From Alphaproteobacteria bacterium (GTDB taxonomy: Bacteria > Pseudomonadota > Alphaproteobacteria > MPNO01), in the NCBI GenBank assembly GCA_964291675.2, contig OZ219866.1, positions 864,001-928,000 on the forward strand: a DNA stretch of 64,000 bases, written 5' to 3'. Within the stretch, counting starts at the first letter, position 1. Every line of letters begins with the position of its first letter. The position numbers and the translations under genes were made by a program. The notes beneath the pieces were generated by a model. The model saw nothing but the letters and a program-made list of their open reading frames with translations, was not told where the DNA came from and ran no database searches. Shown here piece by piece: positions 34,296-37,472 of the stretch.

Positions 34296-35222
34296 CTACT
34301 TCTTCTTCGGCCGGATGAACTTGTCGACATTGGCCTTGTCGACCAGGACGTGGCCGACATAGACGCGCGGGTCGTGCTTGCGGCCCTTGAAATGGCCGTC
34401 CATCGTGTCGACCCCGAGGACCCCCCACTTGACCGGGTTGAGCACCACGGTCAGGTCCATCGCGCCGCGCTTGACCGCCCGTACCGCCGGCGGGATGCCG
34501 TTCATCCCGGTGACGATCACGTCCTTCTTCTTGCCCGCCGCCGCGACCGCCTGGGCGGCGCCCATGCCGAGCTCGTCATTGGCGCCGTAGATCGCCTTGA
34601 CGTCGGGATGGGCGACCAGCGCGTCCTCGCCGTGCTTGAGCCCCATCTCCCGGGTCAGCGCGAGCTCCTGCCGGTAGACGACCTCGATGCCGGGGTGGCC
34701 CTTGAGTCCCTCCTCGTAGCCGCGGGCGAAGTTCATGAAGGCCTGCGCGCCGGCGGGGCCGGCGAGCATCGCGACCTTGCCCTTGCCGCCGATCTTCCGC
34801 GCCGTCCACTCGGCGATTTCGCGGCCCACCCGAATCTCGTCCACGGCGATGTGCAATAGCTGCGCCTTGCACGCCGAGCCCCGGGCGATCGCCATCATCG
34901 GGATGTCGGCCTCCTTCGCCTTGTCGAAGGCGCTGCACAGCGCCTTGGCGTCGATGGGCGAGGCCAGTATTCCGTCGACGCCCTTGGCGATCAGGTCGTT
35001 GATGCCGTTGAGCTGGCGGGCCACGTCCTCCTCGGCGGTGACGACGCTCAGCTTGTAGCCGAGCTGCTTGGCGCGGATCTCGATGCCCTTGAGCATCGCG
35101 ATGTAGAACGGGTTGGTGTCGGAAGCGAGCGCCACGCCGATGGTCTTCTCGGCGGCCGTCGCGGCGCCGGCGATGCCCATTGCTGCGACTGCGGCCGCGG
35201 CGATCAACGCTTTGCGGATCAT
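34296..35222 (-). CDS. sugar ABC transporter substrate-binding protein (RbsB-like)
   Basis: Signal peptide; NPFYIAM, DLIAKGVDGI, YGANDELGMGA; GGAGG RBS. Confidence 0.88.
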   Translation of the reverse strand: MIRKALIAAAAVAAMGIAGAATAAEKTIGVALASDTNPFYIAMLKGIEIRAKQLGYKLSVVTAEEDVARQLNGINDLIAKGVDGILASPIDAKALCSAFDKAKEADIPMMAIARGSACKAQLLHIAVDEIRVGREIAEWTARKIGGKGKVAMLAGPAGAQAFMNFARGYEEGLKGHPGIEVVYRQELALTREMGLKHGEDALVAHPDVKAIYGANDELGMGAAQAVAAAGKKKDVIVTGMNGIPPAVRAVKRGAMDLTVVLNPVKWGVLGVDTMDGHFKGRKHDPRVYVGHVLVDKANVDKFIRPKKK

Positions 35223-35523
35223 CTTTTCCTCCCCCTGGAACCGCTCCGGTCGCGGCGATCCGCCAAGCTTGCGCGCAAACGCGCCGCGTGTCGATGGGGT
35301 CGGGGCTGCACGGTCCCTCCGGCCCGCCCATGGATGCCCGGATCGAGTCCACTGCTGTCCGGTTTGCCGTGAAACAGTTTCGGTGGGGGCGCGCGAGGGC
35401 CCCATCCAACGCCGGGAGGGAGTTGGCTGAGATCGCCGGAAGGGGGCGGCGGAGACGAGCGGTGGACTTCCCCGATGTGGCCCGAAGCGGTCCCGCGCGG
35501 CGGTCCGGCGTTATGCGGGCCGG

Positions 35524-36774
35524 TCAGGTGGCCTTGGGTTCGGCGCGCCGGGGTTGGATGTAGCCGTAGCGGCGGAGCATTCGGATCCAGCGCGGGGCGT
35601 TGCGCTTGACCATCAGCGCGTCGTAGTCGGCGGTGCGGTCGTAGTAGGGCCTGCCGGTCTTGAGCACGACATAAACGATGCGCAGCATCTTGTGTGCGCT
35701 GGCCACGATGGCGCGCTTGTATCCGCGCCGGGCGGCGAGCGCGCGGTGGTGGGCCTCGAACTGGCACCCCTTGGTTCGGGCCGCGCCGTGGGCACATTCG
35801 ACGAGGCTGGCGCGCAGCGTCTTGGAGCCCCTTCGGGTGCGCGCGTTGCGGCGCTTTCCGCCGCTTTCGTTGTTGCCGGGGCAGAGCCCGGCCCAGGCGG
35901 CGAAGTGCTGCTTGGAGGCGAACGCCTCGATATCCGGGCCGATCTCGATCAGGATGGTCGAGGCGGCGATGCGGTCGATGCCGGGGATGGTGGTCAGCAG
36001 GCGGAGCTGTTCCTGCCACGGCGTCATCTGCCGGTCGATCTTCTCGCCGTAGGACGCGATGCGCGCCTCGAGCGCGTCATGCTCGTCCAGCAGATCGCCG
36101 AGCATGAAGCGGTCGTTGTCGCCCAGGCTCAGGGAGAGCGCCTCGCCGAGCCCCTCCAGCTTGTTGGCGACGTGGCCGGTGAGCGAGGCGAGGATGACCG
36201 CGCGCGGCGTGGCTTGCGCCAGCCCGTCGAGGATCTTGCGGCCGTTGACGCCGAAGACGTCGGAGAGGATGCCGCCGATGCGCAGGCCGGCGCGGTCGAC
36301 GATCTTCTGCACCCGGTTGCGCACGGTCGAGCGCTGCCTGACCAGGGTGCGCCGCTGGCGGCTCAGCGAGCGCAGCTGCCGGAACGGCTCGGGGGGAACA
36401 TGGGAAGGCGTGCAGAGCCCGAACTGGCACACGCAGGCCAGCCACACGCTGTCGGCGACATCGGTCTTGCGCCCCTTCAACTGCTTGACCTGACGCGCGT
36501 GCACCAGGATCGCTTCGATCCCCGCCGCCTCCACCGCCGCGAAGGGCGCCTGCCAGTAGATCCCGGTCCCTTCCATGACAGCGGCCTCGACGCGGCGACC
36601 GGTCAGCCAGGCGACCATCTCCGCCAGACCGCTCGGAAGCGAGCTGAAGCAGCGCGTCTCCACCACCGGCTCGCCCTCGCCCTCGCACAGGCGAACCGTC
36701 GCGGTGATCTCCATCTTGTGCACGTCCAGACCCGCCGCGCGCGGCCGCACGACGTGCAAGCCTTCCGTCTTCAT
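35524..36774 (-). CDS. IS110-family DEDD recombinase
   Basis: GLDVHK, MEGTGIYW, KTDVADSVWLA, TIPGID, WAGLCPGNNESGGK; GAGGAGG RBS. Confidence 0.95.
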   Translation of the reverse strand: MKTEGLHVVRPRAAGLDVHKMEITATVRLCEGEGEPVVETRCFSSLPSGLAEMVAWLTGRRVEAAVMEGTGIYWQAPFAAVEAAGIEAILVHARQVKQLKGRKTDVADSVWLACVCQFGLCTPSHVPPEPFRQLRSLSRQRRTLVRQRSTVRNRVQKIVDRAGLRIGGILSDVFGVNGRKILDGLAQATPRAVILASLTGHVANKLEGLGEALSLSLGDNDRFMLGDLLDEHDALEARIASYGEKIDRQMTPWQEQLRLLTTIPGIDRIAASTILIEIGPDIEAFASKQHFAAWAGLCPGNNESGGKRRNARTRRGSKTLRASLVECAHGAARTKGCQFEAHHRALAARRGYKRAIVASAHKMLRIVYVVLKTGRPYYDRTADYDALMVKRNAPRWIRMLRRYGYIQPRRAEPKAT

Positions 36775-37122
36775 CGCTGTCCTCCTCGTTGCGCTCTCGC
36801 CACGGCGGCGTAGGATCGCGCCGTGGCATCGCCACGGTGGAGGCGGGGACAGCGGTCGGAAGGACACGCACCCGTCGAGCGGGTGCGGTTCGATTTGCCG
36901 CGCGTCCACGGCCGCGGGCCGGGCACAGTACGGGGTGCGGAGCCGACCGCCGGAAGCAGTTTATATCTCGGGAACCACATCACCGATAAACGGAACGCTC
37001 ACGCGTCGCCGCCTCCACCATTCCCATCCTGCCACGGCAGACCCGCGCGACGATCGGCAAACCCTCAGCCGAACGCCCCGAGTTTCATGCCACGGGGTGG
37101 CTCAGCACCGCCGAGACCATGA
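36775..37122 (-). ncRNA. putative IS110 bridge/seek RNA region
   Basis: ~350-nt upstream non-coding end; closing stem 36836..36850 with 37005..37019; ATATAAAC and CGGCAAA match target and donor; RNA boundaries unknown. Confidence 0.6.
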
Positions 37123-37243
37123 CGGTTTATATGAGTTGGACCGGGCGCAAAGCCTTGTTCCGGGCGGGATATCGGCGCATCCGCCGGATCGGGACACGGA
37201 TCGCCGCACGCCCGCACTTGCCGTCCCTGCCCCTCCGTTGTCA

Positions 37244-37472
37244 CCCCGGCCTCGTTCCGGGCACCCACGGGCGGGGCGGTCCGCCCCCGGCTCCCGTGCT
37301 TCTCCACCGCCACCCCCACCCCGTCATGGCCGGACTTGATCCGGCCACCCATGCGCGGACTTGATCCGCGCAACCACTGGCGCCACCGGTACAACGCCCC
37401 GTCGGGAGGAGCGGCGGCGCCAGTGGATGCCCGGATCACCCCCGGACTTGATCCGGGGGCCGGGGCATGACG
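37244..37472. repeat. 229-bp composite repeat, inverted copy of 21977..22204
   Basis: Near-identical reverse complement by direct reading. Confidence 0.9.

Follow-up and report, generated by a model that had tools for sequence, protein, structure and literature searches.

An IS110-family insertion sequence in a MITE-like repeat with a predicted upstream bridge RNA whose target guides stand in reversed order

RNA-guided recombination has been demonstrated experimentally for the IS110-family element IS621 (Durrant 2024, PMC11208160). In the passages of the IS621 papers drawn on here (PMC11208160, PMC11208158), the left end, upstream of the recombinase gene, encodes the RNA, in which the target arm precedes the donor arm; the bottom strand is bound by the left guides and the top strand by the right target guide, the core (CT) lies within the guides, and the left target guide (LTG, A50-U58) stands 5' of the right one (RTG, G77-G80). 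The target is a repeated extragenic element, and the subterminal inverted repeats measure 2-3 bp. In the IS1111-type elements, as far as the corresponding passages describe them, the long non-coding region with its RNA lies downstream of the recombinase gene, the seekRNAs (ISEc11, ISPa11, ISKpn4) carry the top-strand complement 5' of the bottom-strand match (Siddiquee 2024, PMC11187229), subterminal inverted repeats of 7-17 bp are present and, for many members, the donor-binding bases lie in a multiloop (Durrant 2024, PMC11208160). The REP-targeting IS110 elements ISPpu9 and ISPpu10 are multi-copy and inserted in one repetitive extragenic sequence, according to the parts of the sources used (PMC12288879, 10.64898/2026.03.19.712850).

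An IS110-family element of 1.76 kb was found on the minus strand of the 64-kb stretch of DNA analysed here (the window), and its features are collected in Table 1. Pfam detected in the gene product, in this order, PF01548 (DEDD RuvC-like, E 4.9e-22) and PF02371 (Tnp, E 3.5e-23), the same two domains as in IS621, and NCBIfam NF033542 ('IS110 family RNA-guided transposase') matched with 266 bits against a cut-off of 140. The IS621 protein is a distant relative only (phmmer E 2e-14); in an alignment to IS621/ISCro4 chains, for which we inferred a 2-residue offset of the PDB chain numbering, the candidate catalytic residues D17, E68, D105, D108 and S304 fell on the ISCro4/IS621 positions, the residues given for IS621 in the passage concerned being D11, E60, D102, D105 and S241 (PMC11208158). 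These domains, together with the covarying fold described below, bear out the proposal of the first-pass annotation that an IS110-family element carries a bridge-type RNA in its upstream non-coding end.

On the minus strand the left junction reads CTCATAT-AAACCG-TCATGG, with AAACCG at 37128-37123, and the right junction TTCACGGC-AAACCG-GACAGC, with AAACCG at 35365-35360; these and the other strings quoted in the first-pass annotation were all present on this strand at the positions given. The genome holds eight copies at 99-100% identity with identical ends, which fix the boundaries independently of that annotation and leave non-coding ends of 351 nt on the left (upstream), where the predicted RNA lies, and 158 nt on the right. 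AAACCG had been taken for the core, but only the A-run is common to both junctions in related lineages, so the crossover was placed in this run; at the right junction, three of the eight copies carry one A less (AA, not AAA). Close to the ends, perfect subterminal inverted repeats of 5-10 bp occupy fixed places in 19 of the 21 lineages compared, with covarying C/G, T/A and G/C variants; at 6 bp, that of this element is shorter than the range given for IS1111 members.

Table 1. Features of the element and of its insertion site (positions in the window)
Feature	Position	Strand	Remarks
IS110-family insertion sequence	35363..37128	-	About 1763 bp if the A-run is counted once; ends from 8 copies, kept in relatives
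A-run AAA at both junctions	37128-37126 and 35365-35363	-	
Recombinase gene, 416 aa	35524..36774	-	DEDD RuvC-like and Tnp domains
Subterminal inverted repeat, left arm TGAAAC	37082..37087	-	Covaries with right arm in 19/21 lineages
Subterminal inverted repeat, right arm GTTTCA	35370..35375	-	Ends 4 nt short of the A-run; covariation with left arm
Structured core of the predicted bridge RNA	36836..37019	-	Closing stem P1 (37019-37006 with 36849-36836) encloses target and donor arms; RNAalifold and pair counts
Predicted target-binding arm	36954..37000	-	P2 (GAGCG 37000-36996 with UGCUU 36958-36954), internal loop, apical hairpin 36985-36969
Putative right target guide region	36986..36995	-	5' side of target loop; lineage-specific complementarity to right flanks
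Putative left target guide AUAUAAAC (ATATAAAC)	36959..36966	-	3' side of target loop; 8/8 to 37132-37125, top strand of left flank plus A-run
Predicted donor-binding arm	36850..36952	-	P3 (36952-36943 with 36859-36850) encloses a multiloop with hairpins Pa (36927-36903) and Pb (36887-36867)
Putative left donor guide CGGCAAA	36894..36900	-	Between Pa and Pb; identical to right-end terminus plus A-run (35369-35363)
Interrupted repeat, left part (target left side)	37129..37200, at least	-	Dozens of genome copies match query positions 1-78
Interrupted repeat, right part (CCGGACAGCAGTGGAC...TCCGGGCATCC)	35325..35362	-	Inverted-repeat end of a MITE-like unit of about 0.4-0.5 kb
Target sequence CATATAAACCGGACAGC			

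All eight copies sit at the same position of one repeat family, in agreement with the earlier description of the target as a subterminal site of a MITE/REP-like repeat. There are 98 CCGGACAGCAG sites in the genome, 8 of them occupied and 90 empty. The insertions were distributed over CATATAAA (n=5), CACATAAA (n=2) and CATCTAAA (n=1), and CATATAAA was absent from all 90 empty sites, so that no perfectly matched site is left free in the host genome. Insertion is site-specific; the donor junction shares a short A-run with the target, and the target is not duplicated over any great length.

The fold of the upstream non-coding end was supported by pair counts, with 93.6% of cells paired compared to at most 49.8% when the partners were slid, and two-sided (compensatory) changes were found in 12 of its 47 pairs. 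The stem that the first-pass annotation had drawn over both loops (37019-37005 with 36850-36836) belongs to this covariation-supported fold, 14 of its 15 positions being paired and one being a C.C. Under P1 the target and donor arms stand side by side and are not nested. In the target arm, two pairs of P2 showed two-sided changes in 7-8 of 18 sequences; in the donor arm, P3 was 90.9% paired with two compensatory pairs, Pb had two compensatory pairs, and Pa combined an invariant stem with a variable loop. No Rfam family matched the region, the only three matches being of chance level (E 0.27-0.96) and far under the gathering scores. When model R1 was run on the DNA upstream of recombinases with 37-43% identity, those of Streptomyces, Variovorax, Alicyclobacillus or Rhodococcus plasmids gave no match, and Caballeronia gave a weak one (19.7 bits, E 0.006).

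The putative left target guide, ATATAAAC, has just two occurrences in the 64-kb window, one at the junction and one in the non-coding end; 0.06 are expected by chance and none of 100 shuffles reached two. Its last C corresponds to the base with which the element's own left end begins, and not to the target. For the comparison between lineages, 86 element copies were parsed into 21 lineages, with only 6 loci contributed by a metagenome scan. Across these lineages the guide block changed together with the left flank, as the earlier assignment of ATATAAAC implied, for instance in ATCTAAAC, GACAAAAC, CACCAAAC, TGAGAAAC and GTATAATC. The mean match was 4.27 to a lineage's own flank compared to 2.45 to the flanks of other lineages, a difference reached by none of 50000 permutations, although such figures overstate independence because the lineages are related.

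On the other side of the target loop, the position proposed earlier for the right target guide, TTCCGTTTAT (36995-36986), was found to covary with the right flanks in other lineages. In this element GUUCCGUUU (36997-36989) is able to pair with the target's top strand, AAACCGGAC, by seven Watson-Crick pairs and one G.U with one mismatch, and the guide has a C.C mismatch in its interior; pairing with the same repeat is poorer in the L031 lineage, which is 99% identical. None of 50000 permutations reached the observed complementarity with the 21 lineages and 28 of 100000 did so with 18 lineages, figures that overstate independence in the same way, and the sense control was null. Clear cases are GAAGGU/ACCTTC, CCGCAU/ATGCGG, GCGGU/ACCGC and GUCUU/AAGAC. 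The guide is short; at least four contiguous complementary bases were found in only 6 of 18 lineages, and in the L035-type lineage, with 40 sites, the right flank was not conserved and no match to a right guide was seen, so that the guide is apparently absent there. One lineage with 38 sites gave a left-flank logo of gACAAAA without right-flank preference. Judged by complementarity, the putative right target guide is supported statistically across lineages and is weak in each of them.

An arrangement following the canonical IS621 layout would make ATATAAAC the left guide on the 5' side of its loop and the downstream GCUGUCC (36853-36847) the right target guide, and GCUGUCC is indeed a 7-nt perfect complement of the right flank (GGACAGC, 35359-35353). 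However, by our estimate a 7-mer match within about 350 nt is not rare, GCUGUCC is the place where stems P3 and P1 join, and it is unchanged in L034, L035, L037, L072 and L075 despite their different right flanks. Moreover compensatory changes are found in P2, the stem that puts ATATAAAC on the 3' side of the apical hairpin, and the canonical arrangement appears very improbable for this element.

Regarding the donor guides, the left one proposed earlier, CGGCAAA, follows the right end of the element in the lineages listed, those with a CAGCAA end having a CAGCAAA guide and those with a CGGCAA end having CGGCAAA. The motif itself is not rare (10 matches in the 64-kb window compared to 6.75 expected, a number reached by 9 of 100 shuffles), thus the support for this guide comes from the covariation. 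The bases after it, inspected by eye across lineages as possible handshake bases, did not follow the right flanks.

For the right donor guide, no recurring position with a complement of at least 5 nt to the A-run plus right donor was found in the non-coding ends of all lineages. The candidate of the first-pass annotation, GACGG (36876-36872), could not be maintained: it lies within hairpin Pb, occurs twice in this left end, is lacking in L086, whose right donor is the same, and shows no conservation among lineages, whether they share the right-donor sequence or differ in it. Two further candidates were discarded: the conserved GUGGACG, with 6/6 pairing to the right donor in the L097 lineage only, and UGAGGGUUUGCCG (about 37069-37057), 12/13 complementary to the donor junction, which was not accepted because it is missing from L034, L075, L077, L078 and L080. 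The covariation between guides and flanks across homologous copies, a comparison suggested by the first-pass annotation, was seen for three of the four guides.

A different explanation would be that the flank matches have no guide function, with the protein picking the site and the structured leader only regulating expression of the recombinase, for example through sequestration of the RBS. In its favour, GGACAGCG, at the RBS, and CGCUGUCC are complementary, no sigma-70-type promoter was detected in 36700-37250 or across the natural right-end/left-end tandem junction in L053, and the metatranscriptome contigs described below show no RNA ends. Pairing of CGCTGTCC with the RBS had also been suggested in the first-pass annotation, but the string on the RBS side changes to GGAAAGCG in the 99%-identical L031 and to GGAAGGCG in L035 without compensating change, CGCTGTCC being unchanged in L035 and reading CGCTGTCG in L031. 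In addition, the guide block varies in step with the flank across 21 lineages, with the RNA around it conserved, and the guide mechanism has been shown experimentally for IS621 in the passages cited (PMC11208160), so that we give this explanation as little credence as the canonical layout. Even less credible is a functional RNA read from the other strand, as an antisense transcript of the recombinase gene. The plus strand does show a terminator-like hairpin followed by a T-run (36867-36887), but the frequent G.U pairs of the fold are compatible with the recombinase-sense strand only, the conserved ones turning into A.C on the other strand (columns 23/76 in 11/18, 27/72 in 16/18, 79/186 in 11/18 and 105/132 in 14/18), and model R1 scored L084 with 187 bits in sense against 21 bits in antisense.

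As for expression, metatranscriptome contigs of three runs from two studies (X1, X2 and X4) cover the non-coding end of the element or of relatives at about 91% identity. Some X1 contigs have no differences in the gene, those of X2 and X4 come from the approximately 91% identical relatives, and a further run (X6) covered the gene only. Short contigs over the non-coding end were deeper than the gene contig, although contigs cannot rank parts of a gene. Such contigs carry no strand or ends and may include DNA, so their coverage is no more than a hint of RNA.

Taken together, we consider it likely, with a probability of roughly 85%, that this is an intact IS110-family element with an RNA-guided ('bridge') recombinase, whose left end encodes a predicted bridge RNA. 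The 351-nt left non-coding end would encode an RNA of about 185 nt, with its core at 37019-36836, in which one 14-bp closing stem would hold two arms. In the target arm, a short guide 5' of the apical hairpin would be complementary to the top strand of the A-run plus right flank, and an 8-nt guide 3' of the hairpin, identical to the left flank plus A-run, would bind the bottom strand; one more base after the left guide matches the element's own left end in the manner of a handshake base. A circle junction CACGGC-AA(A)-CCGTCATGG would recombine with the target CATAT-AAA-CCGGACAGC, with the crossover inside the A-run. By analogy with the family, the RNA would be made, bind the recombinase and, by way of a circular intermediate, direct serine/DEDD-catalysed strand exchange.

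The guide mechanism is already known and the layout is a variant of it. Compared to the passages on IS621 cited above, the element has in common the place of its predicted RNA upstream in the left end, the order of the arms, the strands with which the left guides and the right target guide would pair, a core within the guides and a repeated extragenic target. In contrast, its left guides, for target and donor alike, stand on the 3' side of apical hairpins and its right target guide on the 5' side, the order within the target loop thus being reversed, an aspect that the first-pass annotation had overlooked. It also differs from those descriptions in the additional closing stem over both arms, a donor loop in the form of a multiloop with two hairpins, an A-run in place of CT, longer subterminal inverted repeats and a handshake-like base after the left guide instead of the right one.

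Several of these features are those of IS1111-type elements as described in the passages cited: in the clade of this element the antisense guide lies 5' of the sense guide, the donor site is a multiloop and the subterminal inverted repeats covary, while the closing stem ties both arms together. The long non-coding region with the RNA is, however, upstream of the gene here and downstream in IS1111 elements (PMC11187229). With ISPpu9 and ISPpu10, as described in the sources above, the element has in common several copies and insertion in one repetitive extragenic sequence. It is tentatively proposed, at somewhat less than even odds, that the clade represents a distinct bridge-RNA architecture, combining an upstream RNA of IS110 type with IS1111-type traits and hence a possible evolutionary intermediate between the groups, in which the target is chosen mainly by the left guide on the 3' side. 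In the literature text searched, no bridge RNA encoded upstream and with its guides in reversed order was described; Durrant 2024 (Fig. 6d, Extended Data Fig. 10c, Supplementary Table 5) or the 2026 preprint (Fig. S12) may already show one.

The element would provide a natural and fully readable example of RNA-guided recombination, with three of four guides assigned by covariation. Its value as a tool is modest, as one more orthologue beside the tens of thousands already predicted. An upstream RNA with reversed order, in an element that also has real subterminal inverted repeats, is relevant both to the divergence of IS110 and IS1111 and to how far the structural model of IS621 carries over to other members. 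Finally, the relatives for whose insertion the right flank hardly matters offer a measure of how far specificity can relax.

The recombinase of the element, an IS110-family insertion sequence, contains PF01548 and PF02371, both Pfam domains of IS110-family recombinases, and reached 266 bits with NCBIfam's 'IS110 family RNA-guided transposase' model (cut-off 140). The mechanism, RNA-guided recombination, is already known. The solved proteins of IS621 and ISCro4 were distant kin (E 2e-14 and 9e-15, respectively), and in alignments with them D17, E68, D105, D108 and S304 fell onto the catalytic residues D11, E60, D102, D105 and S241 named in the text of Hiraizumi et al. (PMC11208158), with the PDB chain numbering apparently shifted by 2 residues. 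Eight copies of the element (99-100% identity) were present in its own genome, where the window spans G000:C2:864001-928000, and their junctions fixed the ends as ...CTCATAT-AAA-CCGTCATGG on the left and ...TTTCACGGC-AAA-CCGGACAGC on the right, with non-coding ends of 351 and 158 nt, respectively. Two copies had altered right ends: in L007 (G000:C1:1046155-1048031) the last 15 nt were duplicated in tandem (AAACTGTTTCACGGC), and in L008/L009 (G000:C2:1937941-1939952) the right end of L008 was followed by a second partial right-end copy of about 178 nt. Recombination at donor-like sites may have left both alterations.

All eight copies interrupt one repeat. Its right part (CCGGACAGCAGTGGAC...TCCGGGCATCC) was counted at 98 places in the genome, of which 8 follow the right end of the element and 90 are empty sites. 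The left parts at the insertion sites were CATATAAA (five copies), CACATAAA (two) and CATCTAAA (one), and those at the empty sites were GAAGGCTAAA (27), AAAATCTAAA (9), CTCATCCAAA (7), CTCACATAAA (3) and others. As CATATAAA stood before none of the 90 empty sites of this genome, all fully guide-matching sites are occupied. The first-pass annotation had described the target as a MITE end, which was roughly right, the site being subterminal, because the region holds many REP-like palindromes and in one example the insertion point lay where inverted arms of 52 nt (73% complementary, 383 nt apart) have their inner edge. The palindromes (CATGCCCGGACTTGATCCGGGCATG-like) form a dense family in this genome (e.g. 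G000:C1:545898-546635 and L010:1300-2200), and the target repeat recurs in tandem and inverted arrays, with spacings of about 330 and about 389 bp. The element and its repeat are located in the intergenic region upstream of a gene for a periplasmic sugar-binding protein (34296-35221, minus strand; Peripla_BP_4, E 5.8e-56).

Relatives were collected by a scan of species-representative genomes (79 loci, 58-99% protein identity) and a metagenome scan (6 further loci); 86 element copies were parsed with both ends and grouped by guide sequences into 21 lineages. The 6-bp AAACCG core proposed at first was found to be a coincidence of the element's own lineage, as the two junctions of other lineages had only an A-run in common. 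Since this run varied from 2 to 4 As, and three of the eight own-genome copies had AA at their right junction, the data fit an exchange inside an AA core able to slip in register. Head-to-tail tandem copies were seen in one MAG of the 91%-identical lineage (L038, L048, L049, L053, L054, L057, L098), with right-end/left-end junctions CACGGCAAA(A)CAGTCATGG; here the element had inserted beside the right end of another copy, which resembles its own target. The L035-L079 lineage, of high copy number, had inserted with very relaxed specificity at about 40 distinct sites, all in ordinary DNA outside repeats, and its logo (38 of 40 distinct sites parsed) held gACAAAA on the left and only one A/G on the otherwise unconserved right flank.

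According to the text of Durrant et al. (PMC11208160), the left target guide (LTG) pairs with left target plus core on the bottom strand, and the right target guide (RTG) with core plus right target on the top strand, the same strand rule holding for donor guides. The proposed left target guide ATATAAAC, which occurs twice in the whole window against 0.06 expected, is identical to left flank plus A-run as read on the top strand. Across the aligned ends, the block consists of a variable N(4-6) followed by a constant AAAC and tracks the left flank lineage by lineage: its non-A part matched its own flank over a mean of 4.27 nt vs. 2.45 for the flanks of other lineages, with at least 5 nt in 12 of 21 lineages and a sum reached by none of 50000 permutations. 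The constant C after the A-run matches the base with which the element's left end starts, and not the target; in L110 the left end starts with T and the guide carries U. This base resembles the handshake bases of IS621 (PMC11208158), a comparison with this single change behind it. The left donor guide CGGCAAA likewise held, being equal to the right-end terminus plus A-run, and among the listed lineages its sole variable position (G/A) agreed with their right ends. A segment upstream of the closing stem, UGAGGGUUUGCCG (37057-37069, minus strand), complements the donor junction's top strand (CGGCAAACCGTCA) at 12/13 positions and paired with the left donor guide in a single-sequence fold; similar segments were found in L035, L037 and L081 and were missing from five lineages.

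The fold was obtained from 18 aligned non-coding ends as an RNAalifold consensus, one helix being completed by hand.

Features of the recombinase gene, the predicted RNA and the element ends (window coordinates)
Feature	Position	Strand	Remarks
Recombinase ORF, 416 aa	36774-35524	minus	sequence
P1, closing stem, 13-14 bp	37019-37006 with 36849-36836	minus	RNAalifold consensus
P2	37000-36996 with 36958-36954	minus	closes internal loop with apical hairpin 36985-36969
P3	36952-36943 with 36859-36850	minus	closes multiloop containing Pa and Pb
Hairpin Pa	36927-36903	minus	inside P3 multiloop
Hairpin Pb	36887-36867	minus	inside P3 multiloop
Left target guide ATATAAAC	36966-36959	minus	top strand of left flank + A-run
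Left donor guide CGGCAAA	36900-36894	minus	right-end terminus + A-run
Subterminal inverted repeat, left arm TGAAAC	37087-37082	minus	
Subterminal inverted repeat, right arm GTTTCA	35375-35370	minus	

Standard pairs filled 93.6% of 839 cells, vs. 40.6-49.8% when the 3' partners were slid by 1-3 columns, and 12 of 47 pairs showed two-sided changes; the covariation score was 0.248 vs. 0.044-0.082 for the slid versions and was reached by none of 500 shuffles. Since the stem of Pa was invariant across the alignment, the support for this hairpin comes from its variable loop. With G.U pairs this frequent, the RNA must be read from the recombinase-sense strand. Of the 15-bp closing stem first described, 14 positions pair, and both loops do lie under it, as two side-by-side arms. 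Between this stem and the RBS, an extra hairpin region of 32 nt (36802-36833) is an accessory insertion; contigs from relatives of about 91% identity in the metatranscriptome runs X2 and X4 pass over it, and it is missing from L034 and the gammaproteobacterial lineages. A CGGGG motif in the right end (about 35465-35480, CATCGGGGAAG) is conserved in all lineages; its complement, CCCCG, occurs as a conserved motif in the left end (37093-37097) and in the donor arm (36932-36936).

On its 5' strand, where a right target guide had been placed (TTCCGTTTAT), the target loop was variable and complementary to A-run plus right flank in several lineages: GAAGGU with ACCTTC (L112), CCGCAU with ATGCGG (L097 lineage, 7 sites), GCGGU with ACCGC (L111), GUCUU with AAGAC (L089 lineage) and UAUUU(C)G with CAAATA (L086). 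In the element itself, a duplex of GUUCCGUUU and AAACCGGAC would contain 7 Watson-Crick pairs, 1 G.U and 1 C.C. This complementarity was reached by none of 50000 permutations over 21 lineages; after removal of the near-duplicate lineages L031, L084 and L111, 28 of 100000 permutations reached the value observed for the remaining 18 (mean 3.36 for own flanks vs. 2.62), values of at least 4 being found for 6/18 own flanks vs. 28/306 flanks of other lineages. The sense-strand control gave no signal (reached by 18248 of 20000 permutations), and the target loop of the L035-type lineage had no match to the right flank (40 distinct sites parsed). The signal of the putative right target guide is real but modest, and it lies at the position first assigned. 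A search of the lineages' non-coding ends found no right donor guide and gave no support to GACGG, the earlier candidate.

A covariance model built on this RNA (R1) recovered it in relatives whose protein identity was as low as 55%, gave only a weak match at 37% (Caballeronia) and had no matches in four other plasmid relatives (Streptomyces, Variovorax, Alicyclobacillus and Rhodococcus). Metatranscriptome contigs, which carry neither strand nor RNA ends, span the left end; no sigma-70-type promoter was seen in 36700-37250 or across the natural tandem junction in L053. In a 2026 preprint, 32,190 bridge RNAs are predicted from 86 models, and many structures are said to deviate from IS621. The running text of the literature searched gave no description of an RNA that is encoded upstream and has its guides in reversed order.

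The bottom-strand guides of both arms are placed 3' of the apical hairpins, whereas the top-strand target guide is on the 5' side, the reverse of the order in IS621. In the text of Siddiquee et al. (PMC11187229), IS1111-type seekRNAs have the top-strand complement first, exactly as here, whereas their IS110-type example has the opposite order. Subterminal inverted repeats are a further defining trait of IS1111 elements (PMC11208160, PMC11187229), and this clade has one: in 19 of 21 lineages the repeat was perfect, 5-10 bp long and fixed in position, and its variants covaried (GAAAC/GTTTC, GAAAT/ATTTC, GAAAG/CTTTC, TGAATATGCT/AGCATATTCA), the two others being L084 (spurious right end) and L090 (a mismatch). 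In contrast, the IS1111 RNA is described in those texts as downstream of the gene, and here it is upstream. The bridge RNA of the element is a prediction from fold and guide covariation. Its donor-binding bases are placed in a multiloop, an arrangement noted by Durrant et al. for many IS1111 members (PMC11208160).
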